Shown piece by piece: positions 3,689-64,000 of a DNA stretch of 64,000 nt; position 1 is the stretch's first letter, and every line of letters starts with the position of its first letter. The stretch is taken from assembly GCF_963506605.1 (NCBI RefSeq), contig NC_083290.1, forward strand, positions 248,001 through 312,000, written 5' to 3'. Below the pieces are notes generated by a model. That model saw only the letters and a program-made list of their open reading frames with translations. It searched no databases and was not told the origin of the DNA. The stretch comes from Zootoca vivipara (lineage: Eukaryota). A program made the translations under genes and the position numbers.

Positions 3689-6600
3689 ATGGAAGGGGGA
3701 GACACGGTGGTGACACAGCAGGTCTGCCAGGAGGACGACATGTATGACGGAGAGTGAGTAGCATCTTGTAGCGGTAAAAGCATTGCTGCGTTTGTTTGGG
3801 CTGTATGAACAGAAGCAGGGCCACCATGGAAGACCACCAAGCAAGACACAGAGGGAACAACCCTTTCCTGCCACTTCTCCCCCGGCTGCCTCTGTCCCTG
3901 GAGGTTCCACATGAAGCTCCTGAGGCTAATAACCAAGGATTGACTTCTCCTTCTTGCATGGATCTGTCTAGTCTTTAGATACACACACACAGGGAAGTGT
4001 TCTCCCTCTCCCTCTCCCTCTCCCTCTCCCTCTCCCTCTCCCTCTCCCTCTCCCTCTCCCTCGGGATGACTTCCTTCCTTCCCTGCTCCCCCCACCCAGC
4101 CCTCCTGCTACTAACTTCTGCCTCCTCTTCCTGCTGTTTCTGCTTGGCTACCCAGCCCCTCCCAGTTCTGCCCTTTTATAGACCTGCAGACTGTATGCAT
4201 TTTGCGTGGGGGGGGGGGACAGGACAGGACACATTTTTAAGGCTGCCAAGTTCCCCATCTGCCTTCCCACTTTTACAATATATGCATCGGCCTTGTGCAA
4301 GGGTTGCTTTCTTTTCCATTACTGTTTCTTAAGCCACCGGGCTGCCCAGGACAGGAGCTGAGCCAGGCGGCATGTTATGAGCTGAGCCTGCATGTTATGC
4401 AAAGGCCTTTGCATAATTCCTGCTCGGGTCTTATACAAGCCTCCCCACCCGTCTGCACATGTCTCCGAGGCCTTGCAGAGTTGTCTGGCAGCTCAGGTTC
4501 AGCAAAGGCTTCTTTTCTTGCTTTCGCATTCGCTCGTTTCACAGCCAGCTAGACATCTTGTCATTTGCAAACGGTACAGAATCCACCCTGCAGACCTGGT
4601 GCAGCATTTGGACCTCTGAGTCAACACAGAGATTGGAGCATCTGCCCTGGTCCTCTGGCCTTCGCTGTTGTGGAGGCAGGAGATTGGGCAAGGGGGGCGG
4701 CTGGCAGCCGGACAATCCCTGCCTGCCTGCAGGACTCCTTTGCAGGCTCCTCTTGGACCCTAAACACTGGAGTCCCTGGCTCCCTTGGAAGTGGGGGGTG
4801 GGGGGATCCAGTTCCTAGGAAACTCCTCTGTAGAGCATCACCCCATTCCCCCCAAATAGGCTTCTGGAGGGCTACCTGTCTCCCTTCCGCTTGCAGGATG
4901 CGAGAGGTGGAGGTGGCCGGGCACCCGGTGTTGCTCGTGAGGGACCACCTGCAGTTCAGCGCTCTAGGGAGCAGGTGCACCCATGCCGGAGCCCCCCTCT
5001 GCAAAGGTAAGGGGGTGCCTCTCTCCCCTCTCTCCTCCCCCCTGCCAGTTTCTCTCTCTCTCCTGCTCAGCTGGTCTCTCCTTCTGAATTCCAGGCTACT
5101 TGGGACGGGGACGGATCCGCTGCCCCTGGCACGGGGCTTGCTTCAGCCTCAAGACGGGGGACATTGAGGAATACCCTACCCTGGACTGCCTCACATCCTT
5201 CAAGGTGCGCTCTGATCCTGGCTGCCGGGGCTTCCTTGCACAGAGAGCCAAGGGAGCTTTTTCGTCTTGAGAGGGAGGGGGAGGCCTCCACTGTGGTCCT
5301 TCTGCGCAGCTTCCTTGCCCGGGTGGAAGGGGCTGCTGGGGGTGCCTGTGCAGCACTGCATGCCCAATTGAGAGCCAGGATCTTGGAAGGACAGCCTCCC
5401 CTCCCAGGCCCCGCTGCTTATCTCGTTGCCCCTTCGGACGGATGGCGGGGCCTTTTCTCCTGTGGCACCAGAGCTTGTGGTGCTCCCTTTCAAGAGCGGC
5501 TGGCTTGCCTTCTTCTCTCAAGGCCTTTAGGCAGGCTGTGGAAGGGCTGACTTCTTCAGGCCCTGGATCTGCCCTCAGCTCTCAGGCTCCGTGGCAGAGC
5601 AGCTGCTCTGCATGCAGAAGATCCACAGTTCAACCCGGAGAGAGGCTAAGATTCCTTGCCTGAAATCCCAGAGAGGCATTGCTGCAGGTCAGAGTAGAGG
5701 ATACTAAGCTCAATAGACCAAGGGTCTGACTCAGTTGTGCCATGTGAATTATTATGGCTATAAGCTGTCTTTGGTGGCCTGAAGGCACCAAAATGAGCAT
5801 ATAAATCAGTGTGTGTTTTAGTGCCTGTGCACGCCTGGCAGCCGGAATCCTGGCCTTTGGTCAGCCTCAGTAGAGGGAGGCCAGTCCACAAATGCTGCCG
5901 TGGGAAAGAGGATGGCTCCATGTGGCCCCACTCACTTCCCTTGGAGGTGAGGAGTCCCACAAATGCAGGACTCGCCTGGGCTTTGATTTCCTCTGGAAGG
6001 AAAAGTCACAGAAGACTTAGAAGCATTTTGTGGCATTTGCATTCACTTACCAGTACTGCATACAGGCTGAGCACAGGTGGAGTCGGCAGGCACAGCTTCA
6101 CACACCCAAAATGCACTTCTCTCCCCCCCCCATCAGATCCCTGGAGGGAGTTAGGGAGCCACCAAAAGATGTCTGTGGCCACTTCCTACAGACCTTCAAG
6201 GGATAGTTGCAGCCCCATTAACCCTCTCCTGTCCAAGCTCCACTCAGTATCCTTTGGGTCTCTGCAGGTGACTGTGGACGGTGGGCATGTGTATGTCACG
6301 GCCAAGATTAAGGTAAGGAACTCTGACTCCCCTCCCCTCCTCACGGCTGGATGCCAGGGGTGCCATGGGGCTCCACGTTGGCTACCTGTCCTTCTTCTTG
6401 CCCAGCCACAGCCCAGGCTCACACCCTTCTTCTCCCCACCTGCCCCCCCCCCACTTTCTGGCAGGACCTGGAGAGCAGCCACAGGGTGAAGCCCATGAGC
6501 AAACGGAACCCTCTCAACAGCCAGACAGCGCTGCTCCTGGGGGCAGGTGAGTCCAGGAGGGCCAAGGCTGGGGTGTGTGTGTGTGTGTCAGCCAGAGTGC

Positions 6601-9600
6601 CAAAGAGTCGTCACTGCTCACCAGACAGCCCTCTTCTTCCTAGGGCCCGCAGCCCTGACCTGCGGCGAGATCCTTCGCCAAGAGGGCTTTACTGGCAGAA
6701 TCGTCATGGTGACCCGGGAGAACCACCTGCCCTATGACAAGACGAAGCTGAGCAAGGTCTCGGGGGGGGGGGGCTGGGGCAGGGGCATGAGCAGTGGGGC
6801 CTGAAAACGCTGAGGGTGGGAAGTCTCTTTGCCCCTCATTCATTACACCAGGGATCACCCAAGGTTTTCAGGGGGCCCAGGCTTTCAGCTTTTGTTTTTG
6901 AGTAAGTCTCTAGCTTCCGTAGAAGGAAAGTTACGGGCCAAGAGGTGGAGGCACCTTTGAAGTGATTTCTGAGAACTGAGAGGGTGGTGTGGCTGCCTTG
7001 CCCATTTTTCCTGGCACAGAGGATCAGTATGGTGGGATCTGCCCACCCAGGACCAGCAGGAGGCACTGGCCTTCCCTGGGTAGGCATAAAGCTGCCCGGG
7101 TGCAGGGTGGGCATGACAGTTGTTTTAATGGTGTATGATACCACATTCTGCATGGCAGCCATTTTGTGGCTGGTGCCCAAGGCACTACCTGTGCCCACTT
7201 GCCCAAAAAGATGGGAACCCCCTGTGCCACACGATGGCATTTATATACTGCCCTTTAGCAGGAACCTCACCCAGCCAACCCCACCACTTTTTAAAGCCCC
7301 TGCTTTAGAAGACTGCTGGGGTGGGGAGAGATGAGCTGGGTGCTCCCCGTCTTCAAAGGTGTCTCCTCCCAGGCAGCTTTGGAACGCCCTGCTTATTGAA
7401 GCCAGACAGGCTCCCTCTTTGCTGTCTCTCCACCAATAGGTGAAGTCCTTTGGTTGCTTTTTAATGAAGTTTTTATTGCAGTTATTTGTATGTTTTAATA
7501 ATAATAATAATAATAATTTATTATTTATACCCCGCCCATCTGGCCGGGTTCCCCCAGCCACTCTAATAGATTATATAGACCAATCTAAGGGACCCAGGTG
7601 GCGCTGTGGGTTAAACCACTGAGCCTAGGGCTTGCTGATCAGAAGGTCGGCGGTTCAAATCTCTGCAACGGGGTGAGCTCCCATTGCTCGGTCCCAGCTC
7701 CTGCCCACCTAGCAGTTTGAAAGCACATCAAAGTGCAAGTAGATAAATAGGGACCGCTCCGGCGGGAAGGTAAACGGCGTTTCCGTGCGCTGCTCTGGTT
7801 TGCCAGAAGCAGCTTTGTCATGCTGGCCACATGACCCGGAAGCTGTCTGCGGACAAACGCTGGCTCCCTCGGCCTATAGAGCGAGATGAGCGCCGCAACC
7901 CCAGAGTCGGACATGACTGTACCTGATGCTCAGGGGCCCCTTTACCTTTTATAGATCAATCTATAAAGGTAAAGGGACCCCTGACCATTTGGTCCACTTG
8001 TGACCGACTCTGGGGTTGCAGCGCTCATCTCGCGTTATTGGCAGAGGGAGCCAGCGTACAGCTTCCAGGTCATGTGGCCAAAATAACCCTGCTATAAAGC
8101 AGGTCTCCTTCCTTTGCTGTTCATAGGCATTGGGTACCAAAGCAACAGACATCTACCTGCGGTCTCAGAGCTTCCTGGATGCTCACAACATCGAAGTCTG
8201 GATGGAGAAAGAGGCGAGTGGGGTTGCCACCTGCGAGGGGAGGGGGGAGATTAGGACACTGGTGTCACAGGGTGGCATCGCATTCCAGACCCTGTCTTGG
8301 GGAAAGGAGACATCCCCCACTAGCATGGATGATGCACCTTTGCATAAGGAGGGGCCTCATGCCATGCAAAATGGGGTGCCCCCATTTCAGAACAATGGAA
8401 AGGAAAAACAGACAGAAAGGCAGGATGAGGAGGAGCTAGCAGGGTTGACCCTTGTCCTGCAGAATGAGGCCATTTAAGGACTGTGGTCAAAGGATCAACG
8501 GAGGATGATGTTAAGGGCAGATTTAGTTCATGGGGTGGACTAGATGACTCTTGGGGTCCCTTCCAACTCTACTGCTCTAGGACTCTGTCTATCCTCCATC
8601 CCTCCATCCCAGCCCCACTTTGGGTCTTCTCTTTGGCCTGGCTGCAGGTGGCATCTCTGGACCTGGATGGCAAAAGGGCAGAGTTCAGTGACGGGACCTG
8701 GCAGAGCTACGACCACCTGCTGATTGCCACGGGCAGCAGGTAGGCACTGCCCCCTCCCATGCACAAGGGTACAGGATTGCGCCCAGAAACTGCTCACGCT
8801 ACTGAAATCCCGTTGCAAAACGTGCCTAGAACAATGGGAGTTTCGAACGCTACCCCTACCATAAGCCAAGCCATCTTGCTCATACCCCTCTCCTCTTGCC
8901 CTCGCTCAGCCCCAGGCGTCTCCAGTGCCCAGGCGCCAACCTCCAGAACGTCTGCGTCCTCCTCACCCCTGAAGATTCCAGCCGGATCCTGCGCTTGGCA
9001 ACGGGCAAGAGGGTGGCAATTGTGGGAGCGTCCTTCATCGGTATGGGAATCGGGTGCACTCAGTTTGGCAAGCAGCAGAGGCGAAGGGGAAGGCAGGGAC
9101 AGAGCAGCTGCAGGGGCCTGGCTCTAAGGAACCGTCTGTGAAGCAGGCACCTAGGGGCAAAGAGATGCAGCTGGCCTCTCCCCCCTGAGTGAGGCACCTC
9201 CTCTCCTCCTTGTAGGCATGGAAGTGGCCGCCAGCCTGGTGGGCAAAGCCGCTTGCATCGAGGTGATTGAGAGGGCAGAGTGCCCATACCATGCAGCCCT
9301 GGGCTGCCAGGTGGGCCACGTGGCCATGAAGGTGAGCAGCCCAGGCATGGAGCCAGAGGGATTTCTAGAGAGGGAAGAGGTGGGAGCTCAGGGCCAGAGT
9401 GCCTGCTTGGCATGGCCCAGGCCCCAGCTCTGATGGTGGATTGGACCTTCCTCCCCCCCCCCCCACTGCTGAGGCTTGGCTAGGAGGTGGTCTTGGAACA
9501 GCTCCAGGCTGGGCTATGGGGTAACCTCTTGGAATGAGAAGTAGAGGGTGGGGGGGTAAATGCCACACCTCTCTTGTGGGCATTTTCTGGCACCTGTGAT

Positions 9601-12600
9601 GCCCACCCCAGGCCCTCCCAGAGCACCCCAGTGTAGCTGCATCCCAGGAGAAGGTGCAGGCTGCCTGTCCTCGCTGGGAGCTCCAAGGTTAACACCTGTG
9701 TCTCCTTCCGCTTCTGTAGATGCTTCAGGTGCAGGGAGTGAAGTTCCACCTGAAGGCAGAAGTGACAGAGCTGCAAGGCGAAGGAGGAAAGGTCTGTGAG
9801 GGGGGGGGCAGGGCAGGGGTAGAGCTCAGCAACCACAAAAGTGGCAGGTCCTCCAATCACAGCTGCCTTCCTCCTCCTCTTCCTTCCCTACCCCCAGGTC
9901 ACGCAGGTCCTTCTGAGCAATGGGCAGGTGATCCTCACCGATGTGGTGGTGGTGGGAATAGGTGAGTCGAAGGGTTGGGGTATATGGAGGGATGGTGGTG
10001 TTTTCTCCTCCCCCCACACCCAAAAAAGCTGGAAGCCCTTTCCACACTCTGGCAACAAGGTAAGGTGCTCTTGAAGCAGCCACTTGCCACCCACCCATTG
10101 CAGAACTGGAATGATTTTCTTTCTTTCTCTATATGTTTCTATTTATTTTTCAAGAATAATATCTAGGCACAGAATAACAAAAATGTCTTCAGCGATACAG
10201 AAGATGTCAAGGCAATAAGCAACTACAGTATTTTACTTTTAAAAGACAACTGAATGCGGCCCTGTTTAGGGAAGTTTTTAATGTTTGATGCTGTATTGTT
10301 TTTAATATTCGGTTGGAAGCCACTCAGAGTGGCTGGGGAAACCCAGCCAGATGGGCGGGGTATAAATAATAAATTATTATTACATATCCTTTGCCATTTT
10401 AGCTACAATGATTTCTAGCATGTCATGCCAGTTGTTCAGAGCCCAGCAGGGTCACAATCTTGCTCTGAAAGGGGGAGCTTAGTGCCCCCCCCTGCAAACA
10501 CATAAACACACACACACAGAGAGGAAATAATTTGTAAGTCACATGGCTTGGCAGGGAGGGATCAGGCCAGGGCTTCAGCAATGCCAGGCTAGAGGCCAGG
10601 CTAAAGCACTTTGGTGCCAGCTGGGCATGGCCACCACCTGACTCCCCCCTCTCACCCCCAGGAGTGACCCCCAATTCCAGCTTCCTTCAGGACAGCTCCA
10701 TTGTGCTGGACCGCAGAGGCGCAGTCGTTGTGGATTTGGTAAGCGGAGGATTCAGAGGACCCCCTCCCTCTCCCCTCTCCCCATCTCTGACCAGCCTCTC
10801 CTTTGCCCCCCCCCCAGTTCATGCAGACCAGCGCCCCCTCTGTCTTCGCTGCTGGGGACGTGGCCTCCTTCCCCGTGGCTCTGCTCGGAGGGAAAAACAT
10901 CGACATCTGCCACTGGCAAATCGCCCAAGCCCACGGTAAGCACTACAGGAGTGGGGAAGGAATGTGCACACCCCTCGGGGCAAGTACAGCATTTGCAGAA
11001 TTAACTGCCCAGAGCCTAGAGCTTTCATGTGTTTCTTTCTAAAGAAACATCAGGTTTCTAGTCCTTATTGACCGCAGAGAATAGAGTAGAGGATTGCTTT
11101 CTTGAGGAAGTCTCTGAAACCAGGGGGCAGGCAGAGAGAGCAGAAGAAAAGCCAGAAAGGGGTGGGGGCAGTCAGATAGAGGTCACAACTGTCCCTGCTC
11201 AGTCGCTGTGTCCTCAGAGTGGTCCCTAGAGAACTGACCACAGCCCCCCTCCATCCTTCCCTACTTCTCTTTCTCCCCCCCAGGCCGCGTGGCTGCCCTC
11301 AACATGCTGCAGAGGCAGGAGAAGCTGCACACGGTGCCTTTCTTCTGGACCAAGCTGCAGGCCAAGAGCATCCGCTACGCAGGTAGGTGAGGGGGCGGGA
11401 CACATACCAGCCTCCTGCCCCAAAGCCAGCCAGAGAGGCAGAGGAGCCAACCAACTGGCAGTGCCCCATATTCCCAGCCCTACATCTGTAAGAACCCAGT
11501 CATTTAGTGTGGCAGCGCCTACACTTTGGAACTCGCTGCCTATTGATATCAAGCGGGAGCCTTCACTGTACTCGTTTTGGCACCTGCAAAAAGCATTCTT
11601 GTTTAGACAATCTTGTCCAGGTGCTTATAGAGTTGAGCTGATTTTTAATCTGTTTTAGCATTTTTACTTTTGTCTGTTTTAAGGTACTGCCGCATTATTA
11701 TTTTCTTCATTTCTATCTTTTAGTAAATCCACTTGGCAGTTTGCCTGGGTTTTTTTAGTCTAGCGCTATATGAATTTTATGAAATTTTCTTATTTATACC
11801 AACCCCACCCATCTGGCTGGGTTTCGCCAGCCACTCTGAGCAGATTCCAGCAAAATATAAAAACATAATATCTGCATAAACGACCTAGAGAAAGCCATCC
11901 TAGAGCTTTGAGCCTCATGTCCAGGAGGTGTCTCAGTTCTCTGCCAGCTCCCTGCCAACTATCTTGTTGGATCCCAAAACTTTGCTGCCCTTTTGCCTGA
12001 CAGGCTGCGGGATTGGCTACACTGAGACAGTGCTCAGAGGAGATCTGAGCCAGGAGAAGTTCCTCATCTTCTACATCAGGTGAGTCAAGAGCTCCGCTTG
12101 GTCATTGGCAGGGGGGTGGCTGAGCAGGGCCCCCAGTTGCCAGTGCAGAAGCCCCCGTGCCCAGCACTGCAGAGAAGCAACTGCCTGCTTTGGATTGGAT
12201 TGGTTGCATTTCTGTGCTGCTTTCCACTCAGATGAAACCCAAAGCGGCTCACAAAACAATGAACAACAATAACAGAACACAACAAGTACAGCACAAACCA
12301 TTTAATTAATAATCAGTAAAACAATTGCAATTTATGAAATTCGTTCAGCAATCTGGAACCTATAAAATAAGCTAAACATCAGAATTACAGCATAAGGCAT
12401 ATCGTATGATTTCCAAATCAGCAATATAGCATTTTCTGATCTACAAAACAGTATTTTCTTTGGGTGGGGGTTAAGGATAGAGCATTAATGCTGGTGACGC
12501 TCCAAACTGTCTTGAGGCAGGGGCAGATAAAACCCTTTTCTTCCCCACCCCCCTCAGGTTGATGTGCATTCTAACTCCTATTGCCTGGAAGGGGAGACAG

Positions 12601-13235
12601 CAAAGGGGGGGTCCCCTAAATGCTGTTGGTCAAGTGGTCAGGGATAATCGGAGTCCATTGCCACTTTGTGGGAGAGGGGTGTTCTCCAATCCTGCCCTCT
12701 TAACGTTGGGCCTGATGACAGTTGCAGAAAGAGCCGATAGAAACATAGAACTGTAGAACTGGAAAGATCCCAAGGGTCATCTAGGCCAACCCTCTGCGAT
12801 GCAGGAATCATGAGGCTTGTCAGAGCGGCATCCATCATTGGGGGTGGTGGGACATTACTGTTGGCAAGTCCCAGGTTCATTCCTCAGAATCTCTCCCTAA
12901 AGACAGGTCAGGCAGCAGGGGCTGATGGGAAAGATCCTGAGGATTTGGGGGGGGGGGGAGCATCCTGACCCAGCTCTCTCTCTTCCTTGCGCAGGGATGG
13001 CATTGTGACTGCAGTGGCCAGCCTAAACTTTGACCCCATGGTGGCCATGGTGGCTGAGGTCCTGTACTCGGGGAAGATCATCACCAAGGATGAGGCAGAG
13101 TAAGTTGCATCAGGGTTTCCCCCCAACACAGGTGCTGACCCACACCAGGGCCACGCTTCCTCTGTTTGGGTGACCCCAGCCATCTTGTTTCCTTTCAGGG
13201 CGATGAATGAAGAAGCCCCACCAGAGAAGGCCTAA
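3689..13235 (+). CDS. AIFM3-like Rieske [2Fe-2S] / FAD-NAD(H) oxidoreductase (AIF-like paralogue), 18 coding exons, 532 aa
   Basis: Hand-spliced exons: 3689-3753, 4897-5006, 5095-5204, 6268-6312, 6465-6546, 6644-6756, 8127-8213, 8648-8739, 8910-9040, 9216-9331, 9720-9791, 9898-9961, 10662-10738, 10818-10935, 11284-11382, 12004-12079, 12995-13099, 13199-13235. Total 1599 nt, open, all phases match; GT-AG introns except a GC donor at 8214. Motifs: Rieske CTHAGAPL and RIRCPWHGACF, FAD-binding LLGAGPAA, LPYDKTKLSK, LLIATGS, NAD-binding VGASFIGMEVAA, VFAAGDVA, VPFFWT. Strong Kozak gccATGG. An acceptor at 3679-3680 implies an upstream exon, so the N-terminus could be longer. Confidence 0.92.
4001..4062. 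repeat. (CTCTCC)n microsatellite
   Basis: About 10 perfect hexamer units in intron 1 of the AIFM3-like gene. Confidence 0.95.
7589..7949 (+). mobile_element. Full-length Sauria SINE
   Basis: GGGACCCAGGTGGCGCTGTGGGTTAAACC head, CCTTTACCTTT tail, ~360 bp. 14-bp TSD TATAGAc/tCAATCTA at 7574-7587 and 7950-7963. Confidence 0.9.
7965..8080 (-). mobile_element. Sauria SINE 3' fragment, inverted
   Basis: AAAGGTAAAGGGACCCCTGACC...GACTCTGGGGTTGCAGCGCTCATCTCG...GGTCATGTGGCCA is the reverse complement of the SINE 3' end. Confidence 0.85.
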
Positions 13236-15099: not shown

Positions 15100-18000
15100 C
15101 CACGTTGCCCTCGGACCCCCAAGCAAGGCCAGAGCCCCGCGCTGCGCGGAAGAGACGTCCGACTTACCCGGAGGCCGCCGCGGCGAGGCTCGTCCACACC
15201 CATCCGGAGGCGCCGTCGGGGCAGGAGAGGAGCAGCCACGGCCAACAGTTCTTCAACTGGCAGCTTTAGTTGCGAGAGGGGAGACGTAAAGCATGCCACT
15301 GAAGAACTGCTGCGCGGTAGCCAGGCGGACCCACCAGGCGCAGAGCCTGCGGAGCGAGCGGGGACACGTTAGACGGCACGCACAGACCCCCGGCGGGCAG
15401 ACACGGGCGCGCAGCTGCCGCCGCCTCCCTCCCAGCCGCCCCAGGCAGCCGCCGCCGCCGCTCTGGCCCGGCGAAGGGAAGCCCTGCGCAGCCTCCCCGC
15501 CTGCCTCCTCCTCCTCCCCAGGCGGCGGCGGCGGCGGCGCCCTCTCTGGCCTCCGGCTGGATGCCTAAGGAACCAGCAGCTTCCGCCAGAGCAGCTCTGA
15601 CTCATCCCCGCTGGAGCGCCGCTCGGCCAAAGGGCTCCGCTCGCCTGCCCGCCCCCCTCGGGGCCCCGGCGCGGCACGCCCCCTCGGCCCGGCCAAAGGC
15701 AGCACCTCCACCACGGGGACCCTCGCCGGACGCCGGGCAGTAGGGAGCCCGGCTCCGGGGCCGCCCCGCCTTACCCAGCCGAGAGGCGCGACGCAACGCG
15801 CATTCCACGCGCGTTTGCTCCGGATGCTCCGCATTCCAGCCCGTCCGCCGGCCCCTTCGGCGGTGGCCGCGCTGAACTTCGGCCCGAAGGCGGCCCGGCC
15901 GGACTCCACCCCTCCTGCCGGGGGCTCCGAGGCAAGCAGCAGCAGCCGACCTGGGCCAAGGCTGCGGCCCGGGCGCGCTCCGACGGCGCAGCGCAAGAAG
16001 GGGCCCCGTGCTGTCCTTGGGGCGCTGCCTGGACGCCTCCCTGGCAGGGCGCGCCAAACTTTCCCGGAGTGGGATGAGGAGTTGGCCGCCCGGGTAACAA
16101 GGCGGCTGGTCTCGGGACACTCCCTCGGGGTGGAGGGACAACCGCACGCGTTACCCCCGGCCGGGTCTGCGCATAGGTCGGTCGCGGGGTAGCGAGACGC
16201 CCCTCCCCCCGAGGGCCCCAGGCAGGGCCGGGCACAAGGGAAGGTGACCTCCGGCGACGGCGGGGCGGGTGCCACCCACTGGAAACCCTATAACCGGCCT
16301 CTGGTTGCATAAGCGGCGCCGGCCGCAGCCCCGTCGCGGCAGCCCCGCCGAGTAACCCTTTCGCCCCCACCCCGAAGTAGGGCAGACAGGGACCCCGCTT
16401 GGCCCGGGAGGGGGAGGGAGCAGCAGGGGGCAAGTGGGAGTCAGCGGGGACCCCTGGGCGGCCACCTCCGTCGAGGGAGGAACCCCCGCCACCTCTGTCA
16501 TTCCGGGGTAGGAACTCCGCAGTTGGCCGAAGGGACCCCGGCTCAAGGGCCGGGACTCGCGGCTCGGCGCCCCTTACCCTCTCCCTCTCCGCCGGCCGCC
16601 TGCCTGCCTGCCCTCCCCGCCGCACTCACCGGCTCCCGCTGCCTCTGATCAGCTGGCGGCCTCGCCTGCCACCCAGTCGCCGCCCCCCGATTGGCAAGCG
16701 GGCCGAGCCAATCAGCGCCTGCGGGGACCTCCCTCGGCCCTGAGCCCCCGCCCCATCCCGCTGCAACGTGCGAGCCAAGCCGGCCGTGATTGACAGGGGC
16801 TGAGCCGGGGAGGGGAGCGGAGAGGGGGCTCGGCTGGCTGGCCCAGGGAGACCCCGCCACCGCGCCAGGGGTTGCCGGGAAATGTAGTTTGGGGAGCACC
16901 GGCTCCGGGAACCTCCCGACATGCCCGGCGCCGCCACTGTGAGTTGGCATTTTCGAGGGGAGTCAAAGATTGCGGCGGGGCGAGCCCGTTTGGGGGGGGG
17001 CAGGAAAGAGCCTCGCGCGCGCATCTGGGCTCTCTAGAATCGGAGGGGGCCCTCGAATGAATGCAATAGGGAAAAGCGGCCGGGGGGGGTCATCCCTGGC
17101 AATTGATGCCATTAATGCTCATTGCAATACTTTCTGTCTTGCTCGCCAGCCCTTGGCCCGCTTTCGCTTTGCAAGCCAACCCCCCCCCCCCAATCCGCCC
17201 CCGTTTCTTTGCTCCTGGGGTCGCGCGCACTGCAGCTTTAACGAGAGTTCCAGCTCAATGACGCAGGCAAAGATTCCGAGATGTTGCAAACTGCGGGAGC
17301 CAATCGGAAGCGCCTCTCTGGTCCTTCTTCGCCGCCCGCCAATCGGAGCCCGTCCAGGGGGCGTGGCCCAGGGAACTCAGTTGAACTCGGTGACTTGGCA
17401 ATCCGGGCCGGGCGGACGATGACTGCGCAAATTGTTTAAAGGGACAGACGCCCGATCTGCCCTGCTGCGCCTCCCGCACATAGCTGCCAAGTTTTCCCTT
17501 TTCTCGCGAGGAAGCCTATTCAGCATAAGGGAAAATCCCTTTAAAAAAGGGATAACTTGGCAGCTATGCACTCCCGCAGCGGGTGGGGGTGGGGAGCTCC
17601 GCGGGAGAACTCTGGAGAGAAGTGCCGGCAATTGTGGCGGGGGAAGAATGGCGAAACAAGAGCGCCCCGGAGCATGTGCAAAGGACTCCTCACGGCCGGC
17701 TCGGTCTCGGAGCCTATTTTAAAGCCCTGGTGATGGCGCAGGCCCAGTTTCTTTGCATTCACGTCTTGGGCTTGGGCGCGGCGGGGTGCGCTGGCCTGGG
17801 CGAGAGGGAGGCGCCTCTGGGTGTCTGGAGATGTGTTATTGGTGGGAAGACATAGTGGCGTCGTGTGAACGCACCACGTTTGACGTCTGTTGCCTTAAAG
17901 GCTACCGAGCGCTGCCAATGTGAGGATGAGTCAGGGGGATTCACATCTGCTCCCCCACCTGGGCCGCCGCTTGCCCAGATGCGCTCGCCTTACACGTGCG

Positions 18001-27460: not shown

Positions 27461-28152
27461 TTCCTCAATTCTTAGCAATTAATCCTGGCAAGAAGGAGCT
27501 GGTCGCCTCCTCGGGGTGGGGTGGGATCCCTTGGCCTCGTGGGAAACGGGGTGCTGGGGAGCGAGGTGGGCCTCCTGTCTCTGAGCTCCGCTTGGGCTCC
27601 GCTGCCCCTGCTTTGCAAGCAGAAGCTGCCAGGCTGAGTCCCTGGCAGCAAATCCAGGAAGGGCAGGAAATGGCCCTGGCCTGAAATCCTGCAGAGCTGC
27701 TGCCAGTCAGAGCAGGCAGTGCTGAGCTAGAGGGATGGAGAGACCCATTTATTTGCAGGCCTCTCATGAGACTGGGCAGCCGCTGTTTGGTGAATGGACC
27801 AACATGGTCTGAGTTGGTCTCTGGCTGCTCTCTTCCATAGAACCACAGAGGGACCCAAGGGTCATCAGCCCAACCCTTTGTTCAAATGGGACTTGGGTAC
27901 AACAGGCATTCCAACTTTGCCCCAGGCCTCTGGCTGTGAGCTCAGAGGGTAGAGCATGAGAGACTCAAACTCAGTCAGGGTGGTGGGTTTGAGCATTGCA
28001 GGGGGTGGACTAGATGCTTCTTGTGGTCCCTCCCAACTCTGTGATTCTAGCTATCCACCCCTTCCACAGACGTTCTATGTTCTGCCCCAGTGATCTGTGG
28101 CTCTTTCTCTCTCCACCCCCCCCCAGGGAATGCTGCTGTGCTGCCCCCCAAG

Positions 28153-31100
28153 ATGGACACGCTCCTCAGGCAAGTGGAGAAGGACTTGGGCATTGATCGC
28201 AGCCAGCTGGCAGCTGCCACGGGGAGCTCCCACGTCATCGCTCTGGTGCCCACCAAGTGGCTGGCCGGCCTAAAGGAGCGGGGAGTGCTGCCCAGCCTGT
28301 GCCCGCGCCCCGATGGGCTCAGCGATGTGGAGGTGCGCACCTGCCTCCAGCACTCGGTGCAGAAGCTGCCATCCGGCTGGACCAGGGTGGAGATCCATGG
28401 CCTGAGGAAGGACCGGCTGCGCTACAGGCTGGCTGTGGTGCCTGGCGACCCCAAGGAGCCCCCCGAGACCCTCCATGGCTTCATGCGCCACGTGGCTTCT
28501 CAGAACTACCGGAACTTGTGGAGCCAGGCTCACCGCCTTTATGTCCGCCCGTACTGCCACGCGACCACCCCACCCACGGCCCCTGCCCTGGAGGTACTCT
28601 GTGGGGCCCTCCAGAGGCTCTACGGCTGCCCCATCGTCCCCGTGGGCAGGGGCACCCCCTCCTGCACCTCCCCAGCTAAAGAGGGCGGCTGCTCACCCGG
28701 CAGCTGCCCTCCTCTGGGCTGCCCCAGCATCCTCCCGGCGGAGGCGCTGCTCGACTCCCCGGAGATGTTGTACGTGGTCTTCCCCTACGTCCAGTTCTGC
28801 CTCCACGACATCGTGACCTTCAGCCCGGCCAAGCTGACCAACAGTCATGCCAAGCTCCTCTTCATCCTCTTCCAGGTCCTGCAGGCCATGGAGGCGTGCC
28901 ACCGGGCAGGACTGGCGTGTGGGGCCTTCTCCTTGCACGACGTGGCTGTGGACGAGAAGCTGTGCGCCCGGCTCAGGGTCCAGCTCCGGGACTACGAGCG
29001 GGAGGAGGAGGAGGAGGAGGTGGTGGCAGAAACAGAGGCGGGTACTGCAGAGAGGGACCCGCTGGTGGACGGAGGTGGCATCCATGCAGCGCCTCGGAAG
29101 GGCCTGGGGCAGCTGGTGCTGGACTGGGTGCAAGGGCGCCTCAGCAACTTTGACTACCTCCTGCACCTGAACCGCTTGGCCGGCCGCCGGGCGGGTGACC
29201 CCAACTACCATCCCGTCCTGCCCTGGGTGGTGGACTTCAGCACCCGCAATGGCCGCTTCCGGGACCTTCGGAAGTCCAAGTTCCGCCTCAACAAGGGCGA
29301 CAAGCAGCTGGACTTCACCTATGAGATGACCAAGCAGGCCTTTGTGGCTGGGGGCGGCCTGGGCGGGGAGCAGCCCCATGTGCCCCACCACATCTCCGAC
29401 GTCCTCTCGGACATCACCTACTACGTCTACACCGCCCGGCGGACGCCCCGGGCCGTACTGTGCTCCCATGTGCGCTCCCAGTGGGAGCCCAACGAGTACC
29501 CGGCCAGCATGGAGCGCATGCAGGGCTGGACGCCGGACGAGTGCATCCCCGAGTTCTACTCCGACCCCGCCATCTTCCGCTCCATCCACCCGGACATGCC
29601 GGACCTGGAGGTGCCAGCCTGGTGCAGCGGCCGCGAGGAGTTTGTGGCGGCCCACCGGGCACTGCTGGAGAGCACGGAGGTCTCACAGGACCTCCACCAC
29701 TGGATCGACCTCACCTTTGGCTACAAGCTGCTGGGCAAGGAGGCTGTCAGGGAGAAGAACGTCTGCCTGCACCTGGTGGACGGCCACACCCACCTGGCCA
29801 GCTACGGGGTGGTGCCCCTCTTTGACCAGCCCCACCCCCGGCGCCTAGCGGGGAGCTGCGCCCTCCTCTCCGCCGAAGCCCCGCCCATCACCAGGCCCCT
29901 CATCCCCCCCGTGCAGGAGACGAGAGTCCTGGAAGGGGGTGCCCCCAAGGGCCAGGCCACCAAGGGTGCCGGCGGGCCGGTCGTGGAAACGGCGCCATGC
30001 GAAGGCACGTGGGATGGGGGCCGGTTCACAGCGGTGGAGGAGGTGGAGCAGGGGGCAGAGGCACTGGAGGCCCTCCCGGCCGGGGCAGGCCGGGCCACAG
30101 AGCTGCCCGGTACCCCCGCCCCGCCCCCGGGGATCCCCGCAGAGGGCAAGCACCTCGGCCGCAGCAGGACCAAAGCGGGGGCTCCTCTTGCGGAAGGGCC
30201 AGAGGCGAAGATCGTCCTTCCCGAGGGTTGCAACTTCCTGCAGGCCTTGGAGGAGCTGGAGAAGCTGGACGCCTTCCTTCTGAAGGGGCTGCACGCCCAG
30301 GTGGGCCGGCCGGAGCAGCGCCAGCCTCGCTTGCCCCCGGGGCCCTCGGACCTCTTCCAGAGAGACATGCAGGCCCTGGGGGTCGTGGTGGCCGAGATCG
30401 TCTTTGCCTCGAAGCTGCGGGCGCTGGAGCCCGGGGCGGCCCTGGCGGAGCGCTTCCAGGCGGCCCGGAGGCTGTGCCACCAGCACCCTAAGGACATCCC
30501 GGCTCCTCTCCTGCACCTGCTGGAGACGCTGCTGCAGCTGAAGGTGGCGGATGGACAGCTCGCCAGGGCGGGGTGGGGGCCGCTCCTGTTTGACTACCCC
30601 CCTGTCTGGCAGGGCCTCCCTCCGCCCTGCCCCTGGCAGCTGCGGAGCTCCTTCAGCGCACTGCTGCCCTTCCCCGCCTACTTCCCAGCTCTGCACCGAT
30701 TCATCTCCACCTACCTGTCTCGGCAGGCCGAGGCCGAGGGCCGGGAGCTGGTGTTCCAGCTGTGGCGGCAGCTGGAGGGCGTGCTGAGCAGCATCACTCC
30801 GGAGGGCCTGGAGATCCTGCTGCCCTTCGTCCTGGCGCTGCTGTCCGGGGAGCGCACGGCTGTCCACGCCGCCTGGTACCTCTTTGAGCCCATTGCCAGG
30901 GCCCTGGGCCCCCGCAACGCCCACAAGTACCTTCTGAAGCTGCTGGTGGGGGCCTACGAAAACCCCCGCTGCCTCCACGGGCGCTTCTACCTGTACACCG
31001 ACTGCTTCGTGGCGCAGCTGATGACGCGGCTGGGCCTGCAGCTCTTCCTCTCCGCCCTCCTGCCCCACATCCTGCAGGTGCTGGTGGGGTCCGAGGGGGC

Positions 31101-34100
31101 CGCCCTGGAGGAGAACAAGGCCCTGCTGGGGGCGACGGAAGAGGAGGACGACGACGAGAGCGGGGGTGGCAGTCCCGGGCCCTGCTCCTTTGGGGAGGAG
31201 GCCAAGGCGGAGGCAGAGAGGGGCTCGGCACTGCAGCTGCTGGGCTACATGTCCGGGGTCAGCCTGCACGACCAGGCCGACCTGCCCGAGAGTGAGGACT
31301 TCCAGAACGGGCTCTACGTGGCCGAGGCTCTGCGGGGCAGGGAGGAAGAGGAGGAGGAGGAAGAGGCCGCGGCAGCCGAGGAATCCCTCAGCCTGGGCCG
31401 CCTGAGTGACAAGAGCAGCGCCAGCGAGGTCTCCTTGGGGGAGGACCGGTCGGCCGCCGACGGGGAGTCCCAGAAGGACAAAGGGAGCCTCAAATCCCTC
31501 GACAGCAGCCAGGACCTGAAGCACAGCGAGGAGGAAGAGGAGGAAGAGCAGGAAGAGGAGCAGCCGCAGGAGGAGGAAGACGAGGGCGAGCAGGATGGGG
31601 AGGAAGAGCACGATGACGCCACCACCGTGGTCACAGAGGAGCCGACACTCTCCATGGGACTCAGCGCCTCGGTGGAAGCCAGCCTGGCAGATGATGACGA
31701 TGGCGAGGTGGAGGAAGAAGAGGAAGAGGAGGAAGGCCGGGTCGGAAGGGGCTTGTTGGACCAGGAGGGGGACAAGGAGAGGAGCATTCTGCTGGGTGAG
31801 CCAAGGCTCCTTCCGGGGGTGGGTGGGGAGGGGGGCCTAGTCATTCATTCATTGATTAAAAAATTATATACCGCTGTATCATAGAAATACGTCATAGTGG
31901 TTTAGAGCAGGCACGTCCAACAGGTAGATCGTGATCTACCGGTAGATCACTGGACATCTGTGGTAGATCACTGGTAGACCACTGCCCCCCCCAAAGAAGC
32001 TCAACAAGTTTGCTCCCCTAAAAAAAGCTCAACATTTTCCCCTGCACCCCCCCAAAACAGTCCTTTCCTCCTCCCTAAAATGGGCCTTCCCCCTTCCTAA
32101 AAAAACATCTTTGACCTGAACCCCCCAAAAGGGGGCAGATCACTGCCAGTCTTTAACTCTGTGAGTAGATCGCAGTCTCTTGGGAGTTGGCCACCCCTGG
32201 TTTAGAGTAATATAAGCAAAAAAAGAATTCAAAAGAAACAGCAGCAGGACCACGGGAGGAGGAGGACGGGCCCTTCACTGCCTGCCTAGGCCTTTGCAGG
32301 AAGGGGCTGGGGAGGTGCTGGGAAGCCAGGCTGCGCCCGCAAAGGAAGCTCCTTTGGGTGTGGGCAGGGTGCCGCCTAATCACCCCCTCCCACCCTCTCT
32401 TGTCTCCCAGACACAGCATGCAAGATGGTGAGGTGGCTCTCGCCCAAGCTGGGCCCCACCACCACCTCCCGCTACGTGGCCAGGAACCTCCTCCGACTCC
32501 TGACGTCTTGCTACATTGGTAATTCTCGCCTGGGGGGTTATGGGGCAGGAAAGGAGGCTGCTTTTCGTGGATCTAGGGGAGGGTGACCTTCTATTGGAAC
32601 AGCCTTTGCCAACCTGGTGCCCAAGTGGGGCGGGTGGGCACTTGGGGGTCTACAGCGTGTTTAGCCTGCAGAAGAGGAGATAGGAGTTGCTTTCTCCCCT
32701 GGAGGGCAGGACCTGAACAAACAGACTCATATTGCAAGAAAGGAGATTCCAACTAAAGATTAGGAAAAACTTTCTGAGGATAAGAACAGATTCCCTCTGT
32801 AAGTGGTGGACTTGTCTTCACCGGGCTCCAGTTTTCCATTGGCTACAGCAGCTGGCATGGGCAACCTGGTCAGAGACAGGAAGAGGTGTTAGAGCCCAGC
32901 AGCCCCACAGGCATTCCCCAGACGGTAGGACTTGAACCAGGGGCATGGAGGGTCTGAGCTGCCCCTGTGGGTGTGTGGACTCTCCTTCACCAGGGGCATG
33001 TAAGCAGTGGCTGAACGGCGCCTTTCAGGGCTCCTGTTGCAATGGGATTTCCTGACTTGGGAGCGGGTTGGGCTGGATGACCTTTGAGGTTCCCTCCCAC
33101 ATTCTCTCTCTGCTCTTTCTCCTTCTGCAGGTCCTGGGAGGCAGCAGTTTGTGGCCGGGGCTGAAGAGAGCAGCCCTCTGAGCTCCGGGAACATCTACCA
33201 GAAGCGGCTGCTGGTGGGGGATGTGGTGTCCGAGCCAGTGCTGACCTGCCTCATCCACCTAGCACACCTGTATGGAGAGCCCGTCCTCACCTACCTGTAC
33301 CTGCCCTATATCAGCTACCTGGTCAGTGTCTCTATCTGAGGGTGACAGGGCTCCAGGCGTGGGGGAGGGGGGCTCCACTTTCCCTCTCTCTCCATCTTCC
33401 TCGGAGCAAAGTTTTGATGGCCATCTGCCAGGGATTCTTTAGCTGAGATTCCTGCATCGCAGGGGGTTGGACTAGATGAACTCTGGGGGTCCCTTCCAGC
33501 TCCAGGATTCTCTGATTCCACCTTGCCTTCTCCTACACCATTGCCATATGCTGCGTCAGACCCCGGGGCCCATCGGGCACAGTGTTGTCCAGACTGACTG
33601 GCAGCAATGGCTCTCTGGGGTTTGGGGCAGGGAGTGTCCCTGGGGATTGAAGCTGGGACCTTCTGCATGCCAAGCAGCTGCTCTGCGCCACTGAGCTAGG
33701 GCCCTTACCCAGGGCTCGTTCTCATCCTTCCACTCCAGCACCATTCTTGGGCAGCCTGAGCAGCTTGCTGCAGGGAACACAGGAGTTTGTTCAAGATTTC
33801 AGCAGCCAGAGAAGCTTAGCTTTAAAAACAAAGCAGCCCAAGCAAACTCACCTTCCCAAGTTTCTAACCCTCATGGCTTTAGAGGGAAGCTGAAATGTAC
33901 CTGAGCTGTGCCTGGCGAACTCCCAGAGGGCAGGAGTGGGGGGCTGAGCAGAGGAGGGGCCAGCGGGACAGAAGATTGGGCAGATATATGCCAACTAAAA
34001 TCCTAGATGTTGCCCCCCCCCACTTCCAAGGAGGGAGTTTGCCTTGCTTTGTGTCCTGGAGGGAGGAGTTTCATTTCCTCCCAGGCAGCTGCTCTGAAAG

Positions 34101-45445: not shown

Positions 45446-48400
45446 ATGGCTGCCCCGCCCTGGCCTCTGCTGCTGCTCCTGCTGGCTGGCCTGCCTGCTC
45501 TGCACCACGGGGTAAGTCCAGCCGAGGGAGACTCGCGGGGAGACAGGCAGGGGCAGGAGAGGGCGTGGGGGCCGTGGGGGGACTGGCCCCTGAAATGTGC
45601 TGCTGGTCTCCCAACTAGTGGGGGGGGGGCTTCCTTCCTGTGGAACAAACAGCCTCGCCTTGGGAAGGTGGTGGAGGTCTTAAACAGGAGGTTGGATGAC
45701 CAGATGTCGGGGATTTTTAGCTACGGCTCTTGCATTGCAGGGAGTTGGCTACATGACCCTTGGGGGGTCCCTTCCAACTCTTAAGATTCTATTATTTTAG
45801 GTGTCCATTGCCCATGCCTTTGATGATGATGTGCAGAGGAACATTCTCCAGGTAAGGGGAGATGAATCCCACAGCTTCTCTTTTTTAAAGATTTGCTTAT
45901 TTTTAATGAAAAGGCAAATACTGTGTCGAGTTTGAGACTTGGGAATGGAGAGCTGGGCGGGTAACATTGCTGCGTGATAGTCCTAGTCCTGGATCACCAC
46001 ATTTTAATAATATACATATGGAAGCCAACACCAATGGCATGAGCAAACATAGCCAGTCCCGGAAGCAGAATTTAGGTTGGCAAGTAGAAAGTTCAAAGAC
46101 AGGACCTGTTGAGGCAGCTTTCTCTAAAAGGTTCCCCGAAGAGGGGCTTGGGCATGTGACTGCCAGGAAGAAGGTCTTGGTTTTGTTGGGTGCTGGGGGG
46201 CACCTTCTGGAAGTTGGGCCTCTGGACAACCAGGGAGCCAAAGCTGTGCAAAAGGAGATGGTGGAGAGGATGAATCACTGCAGGAGATGCAGGGCAGATC
46301 CCTGAGCCTGGAGTGACATTTTCGAGAAAGGGAGTCTTGGGAACAGAGGCAAGCAAGAGAGATGGCAGGCCGTGCTGAATAATCTGGATGGTATTGCCTG
46401 AGAGCTCTTAAGGAACTCAAATGTGAAACTGATCTTCTAACAAAAATATGTACCGTTCCAAAGAGTGTCCTTGGTCCCAGAGGACTGGAAAGCAGCCAGT
46501 GCAACACCAATATTTACAAAGGGATTCAGGAAATTACAGGCTTGGCGTCTCTTCCAGGTAAATTGCTGAGAAGTACTATTAAAGGTAAAATAATCAAGCG
46601 CATGCAGGATTTCCTCAGTGGAGACACTATCATGAGAACAACCTGCCAGAAGAGGCTTTTTAAAAGGGCCTTGCAAACCCACTCAATTCAGTCAGCTTTC
46701 TCCCAAAGCAGGTGTGGAGAACCAATTGCTGGCCCTTCAGATGCTGCTGAACTAGAACTCCCATGACGATGGGAGTTGCGGTTCAGAGACGCCTGGAAGG
46801 GCACAAGCTCTGTCTTAAAGGACCTGACAATGCCACTGATGCTGAAACCTCTTTCAGGTTTTTTCTCCAGCCTATGCTGCTTTTAAGTGATTGGTTTTTA
46901 CTGAAATGTGATTTTGTGTCTCGCTTTTATTTTTCTGTAAGCTGCCTTATGAGGGTTTAAGGCAGGCATCCCCAAACTGCGGCCCTCCAGATGTTTTGGC
47001 CTACAACTCCCATGATCCCTAGCTAACAGGACCAGTGGTCGGGGGAGATGGGAATTGTAGTCCAAAACATCTGGAGGACCGAAGTTTGGGGATGCCTGGT
47101 TTAAGGAATACTTAGGCTGGCTCTGATTCATTTATGTGTTCTGTCTCTGAATACCAGCTGCTGGGAATCACAAGGGGGGGGAGTGCTGCCGTTGTACCTC
47201 AGGTCCTGCTTGTGAGCTTCCCTTGGGGGCATTCAGATGCCACTGTGAGGACAGGAGGCTGGACCAGATGGGGCCCCTTTAGTTTGATCCAGCAAGGCCT
47301 TTCTTATGCTTATGAAAACTACCATCTACCAGGCCAGTCTCTGTGTCTATGCAGTCCAGCACTGCCTGTTCTGACTGGCAGCAGCTCCCTGGTCTCCTGA
47401 TGAGCGGAGAACTCGCCAGCTTTTTCCCAGAGTGAAAACAAGGTGCTTCTTTCTTTAGAGGGTGAGCCTGGGCCCTCTTGCCTGCCAAGCCCATCCTCTG
47501 CCCCTCAGCTACCCATATGTCTCCTTCTCTCCCAGACTTAGCTGCCCATTCTTTCTTTCTTCCCTACCTTCAGCTCCAAGGGCCCATTTCCTCACAGGGC
47601 GATGAAGCAGATGGATTGGTGGAAGAAGCATTGCTGCCGGAGGTTGCTTTGCCTGAGGCGGAGGTGCTCCCACCTTCATCCAAGACCCAGGAGGGCCTCC
47701 TTGGCACCTTGCTGCCACCCTCTGCTCCAAGCCTGGCAGAGGAGGTTTCAGCCGTGGAGCTGGGAGAGCCCCAGAGCTCTTCTGAGGCAGAGACCCAGGA
47801 GGACGACCATGGAGGAAGCTGCGACAGGGACATCCCTCTGGAGAAGACGCACATGGTGGCCGAGGCTGTGATGAAGCTGGGTGCTAACCTCCTGCGGCAG
47901 GTGGAACTGGAGAACGGCAAAGGCAACCTCTTCTTCTCTCCGCTCAGCATCAGCCTGGCACTGGCTCACTTGGCTCTAGGTCAGTATCCCCAAATCTCTC
48001 AAAGACAGCCGGTTTGTTGACTTCTTCTGAACTCAAAAGTGAAGGTGCTATTCATGGTTAACAGCAATGAAGGGCTTTGCTTTTAGGATGTGGAAAAGGT
48101 GAGGTGCTGCTCTCCCTCCAAGTAGTGGTGGCTCCTAAGTGTGTGGGGCAGCCTCTTCCGAGGAGAGGCAATTCGGTCATCTCTCTGAATGAATAACCAA
48201 TGCAGAGATGGCAGGGGTGAAAGCAAAGCAGCTTGCCAGCCACTGAGTGCTCTGGACTCCACTTAGCTGAATTTCTCCCAGCACATGAGGAGCCTCGTTG
48301 GCTGCACAGTCTGAGAATTTCTGCAATGGAGATGGGAGGAGTAGGAACAGAAGACGCTGCCTTGTACTGGGTCTGACCAGTAGTCCGTCTAGTTTGGTGT

Positions 48401-54400: not shown

Positions 54401-54566
54401 GCCCTTCCTCTTCATCATCCAAGAGGACACCACTGGCATCCCTCTCTTCCTGGGCGCCATCCGCAACCCCAACCCCAGCGCCCCTCAGGAGAGGAAGATG
54501 AGTGACTGTGCTGTGGGAAATGAGGGAAAGCTCTTTCCTTGCTCCGTGGACCAAGAGAAGCCCTGA
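45446..54566 (+). CDS. SERPINF2: Alpha-2-antiplasmin (serpin F2), 518 aa
   Basis: Exons 45446-45511 (signal peptide [17 protein letters not shown]), 45801-45851, 47574-47979, 50544-50687, 51682-51885, 52634-52776, 53054-53258, 54229-54566. Total 1557 nt, open. Serpin motifs [31 protein letters not shown], hinge/[28 protein letters not shown], and a C-terminal extension after RNPNP. Syntenic between WDR81 and SERPINF1. The first two small exons are less certain. Confidence 0.93.
46963..47098. mobile_element. Non-autonomous hAT MITE
   Basis: TIRs CAGGCATCCCCAAACT/AGTTTGGGGATGCCTG with a long internal palindrome and perfect 8-bp TSD GTTTAAGG (46955-46962, 47099-47106). A decayed relative lies at ~62050-62140. 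Confidence 0.9.
48985..50045 (+). mobile_element. Young CR1 LINE, 5'-truncated
   Basis: [33 protein letters not shown] motif, frameshifted. Near-identical to the 18687-19586 copy, and ends CTCTATGATTCTA. Confidence 0.95.
52096..52567 (-). mobile_element. CR1 LINE 3' fragment
   Basis: CATAGAATCATAG tail; translates to [28 protein letters not shown]. Confidence 0.85.
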
Positions 54567-63848: not shown

Positions 63849-64000
63849 GTCAGTACAGGAAGCAGACCCTGCATAAAGTGTCTCCCAGCCAGCTTCACAG
63901 TATAAGGGCAGGCAGGCAGGCTTTCCTTCACCAGTTGCTCCCTCTCATCACTAAATTTGTGACAGGAAGGGAATGGCTTCATTTGGCCAGCTAAACCAGG

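Follow-up and report, generated by a model that had tools for sequence, protein, structure and literature searches.

Results

An intact, spliced gene convergent with mir-22

The window analysed here is a stretch of 64,000 nucleotides from the lizard Zootoca vivipara (NCBI RefSeq assembly GCF_963506605.1, contig NC_083290.1), which corresponds to G000:C15:248001-312000 in our numbering; positions given without a chromosome refer to the window. On its plus strand, at 3689..13235, lies a gene for a protein in which a Rieske [2Fe-2S] domain is joined to an FAD/NAD(H) reductase module, and which we identify below as the lizard orthologue of fish aifm4, the sister gene of AIFM3. Its 18 exons, of 37-131 nt, join into 1599 nt, or 532 codons and a stop with zero internal stops, running from an ATG at 3689 in the context GCCATGG to a TAA that ends at 13235 (Table 1). 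All 17 acceptors are AG, and the donors are GT in 16 introns and GC in one (intron 7, 8213|8648).

Public RNA data agree with this structure. Alignments from four runs over 3000-14000 contain 34 splice joints in total, of which 15 are listed; 13 of the 15 coincide with predicted introns (3, 4, 6-14, 16 and 17), the GC-AG intron included, and introns 1, 2, 5 and 15 fall outside the listed joints. The GC-AG joint (8211>8646) is present in runs X20 (6 reads), X1 and X5. Raw reads came from two runs picked by species label, X20 and X21, and X20 has junction reads for nine introns, 1-12 reads each at low depth, in the orientation of plus-strand RNA. RNA-seq, which an earlier sequence-only reading of this DNA had proposed as a check, thus bears out 13 introns, with low depth in the raw runs. 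Most of the RNA reads are attracted by short repeats in introns 6 and 12.

The translated product is the database protein P0429, labelled by NCBI 'apoptosis-inducing factor 3 [Zootoca vivipara]', with 0 differences in 532 amino acids (aa); the open reading frame (ORF) is therefore neither a chance product nor a new gene model. Models from five other lacertids differ from the window protein at 11-16 positions. Splice joining, RNA joints and the identity to P0429 all uphold the complete 18-exon, 532-aa ORF that the sequence-only reading had drawn. The locus is an intact spliced gene, and its structure, splicing, orthology and domain make-up are established.

At the 3' end, the gene is convergent with mir-22, as had been claimed, the precursor being matched by Rfam on the minus strand. 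Over 12909-14000, reads of run X21 lie antisense to the coding junction reads, at depth 2-4, which suggests that the mir-22 host transcript overlaps the 3' end of the gene. No AATAAA or ATTAAA polyadenylation signal is present within 2 kb past the stop, where there is only a CATAAA at 13746. At the 5' end, some RefSeq isoforms have N-terminal extensions, and in some lacertids the plus-strand start of these isoforms lies 425 bp from the minus-strand ATG of a TLCD2-like gene (L040:1271-1696 = G000:C15:245271-245696). The stretch between them, upstream of the window, is one CpG-rich region, and the two genes likely share a bidirectional promoter.

The gene is the orthologue of fish aifm4

The same genome holds one other member of the family, AIFM3, at C17:16.60-16.64 Mb, and its product is 46.8% identical to the window protein over 502 aa. 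The two genes share the Rieske plus reductase architecture and 15 of 16 internal exon lengths; they differ in clade and chromosome, in the longer N-terminus of AIFM3, in its slower evolution, and in that AIFM3 is kept in mammals. An IQ-TREE phylogeny of 39 rows and 529 columns, the rows being selected from ~430 proteins, puts the window protein into a clade of 22 rows, supported at 100/100, whose other members include proteins named aifm4 in teleosts and paddlefish and proteins of amphibians, turtles, alligator and birds. A second clade, likewise at 100/100, unites the C17 copy with AIFM3 of carp, chimpanzee, horse and sheep and leaves the window protein out. A lizard-specific duplication, with the two lizard genes together, is rejected by the approximately unbiased (AU) test (p-AU 1.3e-6). 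The locus is thus the lizard orthologue of fish aifm4 (hereafter AIFM4), which confirms the proposal of a separate, ancient paralogue and its suspected relation to the fish gene. The zebrafish gene is linked to this clade through its gene name, its protein being outside the rows of the tree. AIFM4 has the longer branches: the path from lizard to tilapia AIFM4 is 1.37, against 0.38 from lizard to carp AIFM3.

Fish aifm4 and the window gene also agree in length (~530-540 aa) and Pfam make-up, at 47-56% identity, and the fish genes differ from those of sauropsids and frog by label only, the latter being called 'AIF3' or 'AIF3-like'. According to PMC10416458, the frog gene shares local synteny with the fish, reptile and bird genes.

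The faster evolution of AIFM4 than of AIFM3 and the sparse reads of the two raw RNA runs might be taken as signs of a redundant, decaying or translocated AIFM3 copy. We regard this as extremely improbable. Orthologues are intact from fish to birds, the cofactor residues are conserved (see below), and nine of the ten exonic variants listed from the RNA runs are synonymous (40 of 164 variant rows were listed). A simple translocation, which the sequence-only reading had held open, is contradicted by the true AIFM3 on C17, though this copy has no adjoining LZTR1 in 250 kb, and by the position of the window protein outside the AIFM3 clade.

Database names in this family are a poor guide. Several AIFM4 proteins of squamates bear the UniRef label 'L-amino-acid oxidase', and some AIFM4 proteins are plain 'apoptosis-inducing factor 3' in RefSeq (P0002, P0012, P0017, P0215, P0427); both labels look like automatic misnaming. 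The ESM Atlas returned only 'AIF3' clusters. P0123, considered as aifm5 or as a cyclostome protein, turned out to be a teleost aifm4. P0125 (Alosa alosa) is a long-branched sister of euteleost aifm4, and could be aifm5, a teleost duplicate.

Conserved redox architecture

Pfam finds Rieske (3.9e-21), Pyr_redox_2 and Reductase_C domains in P0003, a protein 97% identical to the window protein, and the Rieske motifs CTH (C49/H51) and CPWH (C68/H71) are in place, so that the fusion of a Rieske domain to an FAD/NAD(H) reductase first read from the letters holds. Across 120 aligned rows, the ligands C49, H51, C68 and H71 are kept in 118, 118, 120 and 119 rows, E281 and W449 in 117 each, and K175 in 115; the GD motif and the Lys-Glu pair (K175, E281) lie within the range of 115-120 rows. 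The predicted model of P0003 is confident as one unit (predicted local distance difference test, 96; predicted template-modelling score, 0.94).

Residues 11-106 match the dioxygenase ferredoxin HcaC (1.7e-18) and residues 130-518 the reductases AndAa/HcaD (7e-64), in both cases below the curated NCBIfam cut-offs. The solved folds nearest to the predicted model are PuR, TodA, Pdr and BphA4 (Z 41.6-44.0, root-mean-square deviation 1.8-2.4 over 384-403 residues); the single Rieske exon, searched against the PDB, gave no match. With BphA4/BphA3, TodA, HcaD/HcaC, Pdr and PuR, AIFM4 shares the three-domain reductase fold, the PYxxxxLSK, ATG, GD and FW motifs and an HcaC-like ferredoxin. It differs in that ferredoxin and reductase are fused, at 24-31% identity, and in that no oxygenase gene stands alongside it. 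Oxygenase-coupled reductases are described as using a Trp to carry electrons from FAD to their [2Fe-2S] partner, and an acidic residue to select NADH (PMC5031999, 10.1101/2020.03.12.988360).

At position 421, on the flavin side of exon 14, Gln is found in all 50 bird rows that cover the position and Trp in 65 other rows. The equivalent residue of FdR9 is described as binding FAD via its backbone (10.1101/2020.03.12.988360), and the change to Gln in birds may therefore be tolerated.

The database names imply that AIFM4 is a mitochondria-associated inducer of apoptosis, papers treat aifm4 as a marker of apoptosis on the strength of its name, and there is a weak similarity to AIFM1 (AIF; E about 1e-21), with which it shares a glutathione-reductase-type FAD/NADH core. 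Such a role is unlikely in our view. AIFM1 has no Rieske domain, and AIFM4 has neither presequence nor membrane anchor, the Rieske fold being predicted to begin at residue 13 of the model; nor is AIF_C among the 10 Pfam families matched at E up to 0.01. AIFM1 is much more distant from AIFM4 than bacterial ferredoxin reductases are (E 1e-21 versus 1e-50; Z 34 versus 44), and the lineages of AIFM1 and AIFM3 had already separated before eukaryotes (PMC5982838).

A second possibility is that AIFM4 reduces a small-molecule radical directly, in the manner of plant monodehydroascorbate reductase (MDHAR). The fold is the same (Z 39.5), and an antioxidant role would suit the control by Nrf2 discussed below. 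This is nevertheless highly unlikely. MDHAR needs Tyr349 (rice Y349) where Pdr and BphA4 have Trp, and the Y349W enzyme is inactive (PMC5031999). AIFM4 has Trp (W449) at the inferred Tyr349 position, mapped via PuR/ArR alignments and not to MDHAR directly, and its Rieske domain would occupy the MDHAR-type site.

The two lizard proteins differ at their N-termini: C17 AIFM3 begins MGGCFSK, and the window protein begins MEGG, without the Gly2 extension. The Gly2 motif, which is of the myristoylation type, is also found at the start of two AIFM3 proteins from mammals and of several relatives that are unnamed or from invertebrates. Both kinds of isoform, long with Gly2 and short, come from the oyster gene, so that the duplicates may have shared out a set of ancestral isoforms between them.

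Presence across jawed vertebrates and apparent loss in mammals

The best 120 matches to the window protein comprise 27 squamates, 7 turtles, 1 crocodilian, 52 birds, 26 amphibians, 3 fish and 4 unnamed rows that group with squamates or amphibians; none of the 116 named rows is a mammal. Among 147 further representatives, 20 of which were named by look-up, no mammal falls in the AIFM4 clade, and the mammalian proteins identified are AIFM3. Row 1529 of Table S1 in Lyubetsky et al. 2023 (PMC10416458) concerns the frog gene XP_002936104.2, whose protein cluster also contains P0101, a member of the AIFM4 clade. The row gives no copy for any of 16 mammals (13 placentals, opossum, platypus and Tasmanian devil); all the birds (4/4), reptiles (6/6) and fish (6/6) have one, elephant shark and coelacanth among them. 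The row is one of 2392, and the main text is silent on it; the main text of PMC3296468 makes no mention of the gene.

Every group of non-mammalian jawed vertebrates sampled keeps AIFM4, which appears to have been lost in mammals. The sequence-only reading had it retained in reptiles and lost in mammals; the mammalian half is supported by the matches and by the tabulated frog gene, and the reptilian half was too narrow.

Neighbourhoods and origin of the two genes

Upstream of AIFM4 are an SLC43-like transporter, SCARF1, RILP, PRPF8 and a TLC-domain gene, and downstream are mir-22, a BEACH gene and two serpins; this is the order of human 17p13.3, with a single gene added between TLCD2 and MIR22. 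The neighbours of C17 AIFM3 are a sirtuin, a TMEM17-like gene, a P2X receptor, a leucine-rich repeat gene, a cationic amino-acid permease (SLC7A4-like), DGCR6 and a SCARF2-like gene, with CRKL 1.45 Mb off, which makes a 22q11-type block. The 22q11-type neighbours (P2X gene, SLC7A4, DGCR6, SCARF2, CRKL) flank the C17 copy, not the window gene. Human AIFM3 adjoins LZTR1, an adjacency without counterpart at C17 AIFM3. Kelch-motif and exon scans of C17:16.51-16.76 Mb (250 kb) and two genome Pfam searches gave no LZTR1 candidate beside AIFM3, and short exons may hide LZTR1 elsewhere; a Kelch match at C17:15.17 Mb proved to be a BTB-BACK-Kelch gene beside CRKL.

SCARF1 lies ~57 kb from AIFM4, and a 54%-identical SCARF2-like exon lies ~120 kb from AIFM3. 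P2X loci are found on C15 (two), C17 (four) and C1 (one). Lamb 2021 assigns human 17p13/chicken 19 and human 22q11/chicken 15 to paralogon 2, as quadruplicates A and D, split at the first round of genome duplication, 1R (PMC8040251); no AIFM rows were found in the examined part of the supplementary table. AIFM3 and AIFM4 likely arose in a vertebrate whole-genome duplication, which makes AIFM4 a likely ohnologue of AIFM3, and from the paired SCARF genes, the P2X distribution and the paralogon scheme we infer that they split at the first such duplication.

Other features of the two regions are listed here for completeness. After AIFM3, at G000:C17:16.64-16.66 Mb (L009-L011), come the TMEM17-like gene and then the P2X gene, and a SIRT4-like gene precedes it. 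An AIFM3 intron (L007:1278-5198 = G000:C17:16621278-16625198) holds a long ORF of a long terminal repeat (LTR) retroelement with protease, reverse transcriptase, RNase H and integrase-like motifs, and similar copies lie ~70 kb and ~120 kb away (L050/L051, L055). In the window, fragments at 18797-19618 and 49095-49976 resemble reverse transcriptase of the CR1 type.

Table 1. AIFM4 exons and neighbouring features in the window.
Feature	Position	Strand	Content and evidence
Coding exon 1	3689..3753	+	ATG; aa 1-21, first Rieske strands; no Gly2 anchor motif; identity to P0429; donor outside listed RNA joints
Exon 2	4897..5006	+	aa 22-58; Rieske C49/H51
Exon 3	5095..5204	+	aa 59-95; Rieske C68/H71; RNA joint to exon 4
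Exon 4	6268..6312	+	aa 96-110; end of Rieske domain; RNA
Exon 5	6465..6546	+	aa 111-137; linker, start of FAD-binding motif; 82 nt versus 97 nt in AIFM3, the sole internal exon differing
Exon 6	6644..6756	+	aa 138-175; end of GAGPAA, PYDxxKLSK with K175; RNA
Exon 7	8127..8213	+	aa 176-204; GC-AG intron next; RNA joint
Exon 8	8648..8739	+	aa 205-234; ATG motif; RNA
Exon 9	8910..9040	+	aa 235-278; NAD-binding GASFIG begins; RNA
Exon 10	9216..9331	+	aa 279-317; E281, E297; RNA
Exon 11	9720..9791	+	aa 318-341; RNA
Exon 12	9898..9961	+	aa 342-362; RNA
Exon 13	10662..10738	+	aa 363-388; RNA
Exon 14	10818..10935	+	aa 389-427; AGD motif, HWQ with W421; RNA
Exon 15	11284..11382	+	aa 428-460; PFFWT with W449, likely electron-relay Trp
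Exon 16	12004..12079	+	aa 461-485; Reductase_C; RNA
Exon 17	12995..13099	+	aa 486-520; RNA
Exon 18, coding part	13199..13235	+	aa 521-532, TAA; 3' UTR runs on; RNA
mir-22 precursor, convergent neighbour	15235..15322	-	Rfam RF00653, 76.7 bits
Large BEACH-domain exon	28051..31884	+	Domain match; presumably WDR81 (domain and position)
Serpin exons	47466..54566	+	Domain match; presumably SERPINF2 (position)
Serpin exons	62224..63905	+	Domain match; presumably SERPINF1 (position)

Discussion

Our analyses lead us to favour, with fair but by no means full confidence, a picture in which the gene beside mir-22 is an intact aifm4 orthologue, likely a whole-genome-duplication sister of AIFM3 and apparently lost in mammals, whose product is predicted to be a soluble and likely Nrf2-induced one-electron reductase. 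In such an enzyme, NADH would pass a hydride to FAD (GASFIG, E281 and the acidic E297), FAD would release single electrons, likely via W449, to the fused Rieske [2Fe-2S] cluster, and the cluster would pass them on to an external acceptor of single electrons in the cytosol. We propose this route from NADH through FAD, W449 and the Rieske cluster to an acceptor because the residues are conserved and the roles of the Trp and the acidic residue are known from reductases. That the acceptor belongs to the class of oxidised metal centres or radicals met in oxidative or electrophile stress is, to our minds, about an even call. After the duplication, the Gly2 start, which resembles a lipid anchor, would have been retained by AIFM3, with AIFM4 likely turning into the copy that is inducible and unanchored.

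The suggestion of Nrf2 control comes from zebrafish. Table S1 of PMC10031532 gives a 16.0-fold rise of aifm4 in keap1a;keap1b larvae and a value of 1.2-fold when nrf2 is also mutant. In the list of 599 up genes it occupies row 11, next to prdx1, gstp and txn, with the cell for the human homologue blank, and the text of that paper does not discuss it. Other studies report zebrafish aifm4 more than 32-fold up with arsenic (PMC10941348) and aifm4 changed by peroxide (PMC7598701).

It is tempting to ask whether AIFM4, whose two parts resemble a ferredoxin and a reductase from bacterial Rieske dioxygenase systems, is a dedicated electron donor for a Rieske oxygenase, most plausibly a Neverland/DAF-36-like cholesterol 7-desaturase. 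The same genome has a gene with Rieske and KshA_C parts at C2:6.048-6.074 Mb (L058-L061), which we take from its motifs to be Neverland/DAF-36-like, and to our knowledge Neverland is absent from mammals. The two lizard genes are unlinked, however, and mammals keep AIFM3, which could fill the same donor role. Moreover, no 'nvd' row occurs among the genes changed twofold in the Keap1 mutants, Neverland was not found by name in the lost-in-mammals table (PMC10416458), and beetles without neverland are reported to keep an AIF3-type protein (PMC13449613). We consider a dedicated donor role unlikely, and would give as little credence to the fuller scheme in which a Rieske oxygenase chain of the bacterial kind operates in non-mammalian vertebrates, with AIFM4, a top Nrf2 target, feeding the Neverland-like sterol oxygenase, and mammals lost both together.

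Several observations weigh against AIFM4 as an unanchored, Nrf2-induced, NADH-dependent reductase that arose at 1R and was lost in mammals. The preference for NADH may not be general, because position 297 is acidic (E or D) in only 83 of the 120 rows, with G in 35. 'Unanchored' may not hold for all isoforms, because of the N-terminal extensions of some RefSeq isoforms. Both tests for mammals cover annotated proteins, not mammalian DNA, and the list of the best 120 matches ends at 620 bits; as AIFM4 evolves fast, they leave a gap for an orthologue near 50-57% identity. A lamprey protein joins AIFM3 (99/97), but its placement outside both AIFM3 and AIFM4 is not rejected (p-AU 0.114), so that the 1R timing rests mainly on the paralogon. 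Control by Nrf2 is known from zebrafish only, from one RNA-seq table, and in trout cells the response to copper is mixed, up at 400 and down at 64 ug/L (PMC12656199). Sites resembling antioxidant response elements number 4 in the 7.7 kb preceding the lizard ATG, against 4.0 expected, the level of chance. Cores of metal response elements number 15 against 6.7 expected under a background model that ignores local composition, and we draw nothing from this count.

AIFM4 is already known as an entity, because the gene is annotated, its fish orthologue named and its mammalian loss tabulated. We found no paper on the evolution, origin or biochemistry of aifm4 in the literature searched, which covered few subscription journals. 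What is newly joined here is the picture of a likely AIFM3 ohnologue, unanchored, Nrf2-induced in fish and absent from mammals. With it, the label 'AIF3' is corrected on many reptile, bird and frog proteins.

If this picture is true, one of the strongest Nrf2 targets of zebrafish is an enzyme without a counterpart in every mammal tested, and this would bear on how toxicology data from fish, frogs and birds are read where aifm4 has served as an apoptosis marker by name. AIFM4 would also offer a simpler, unanchored twin through which to find the function of human AIFM3.

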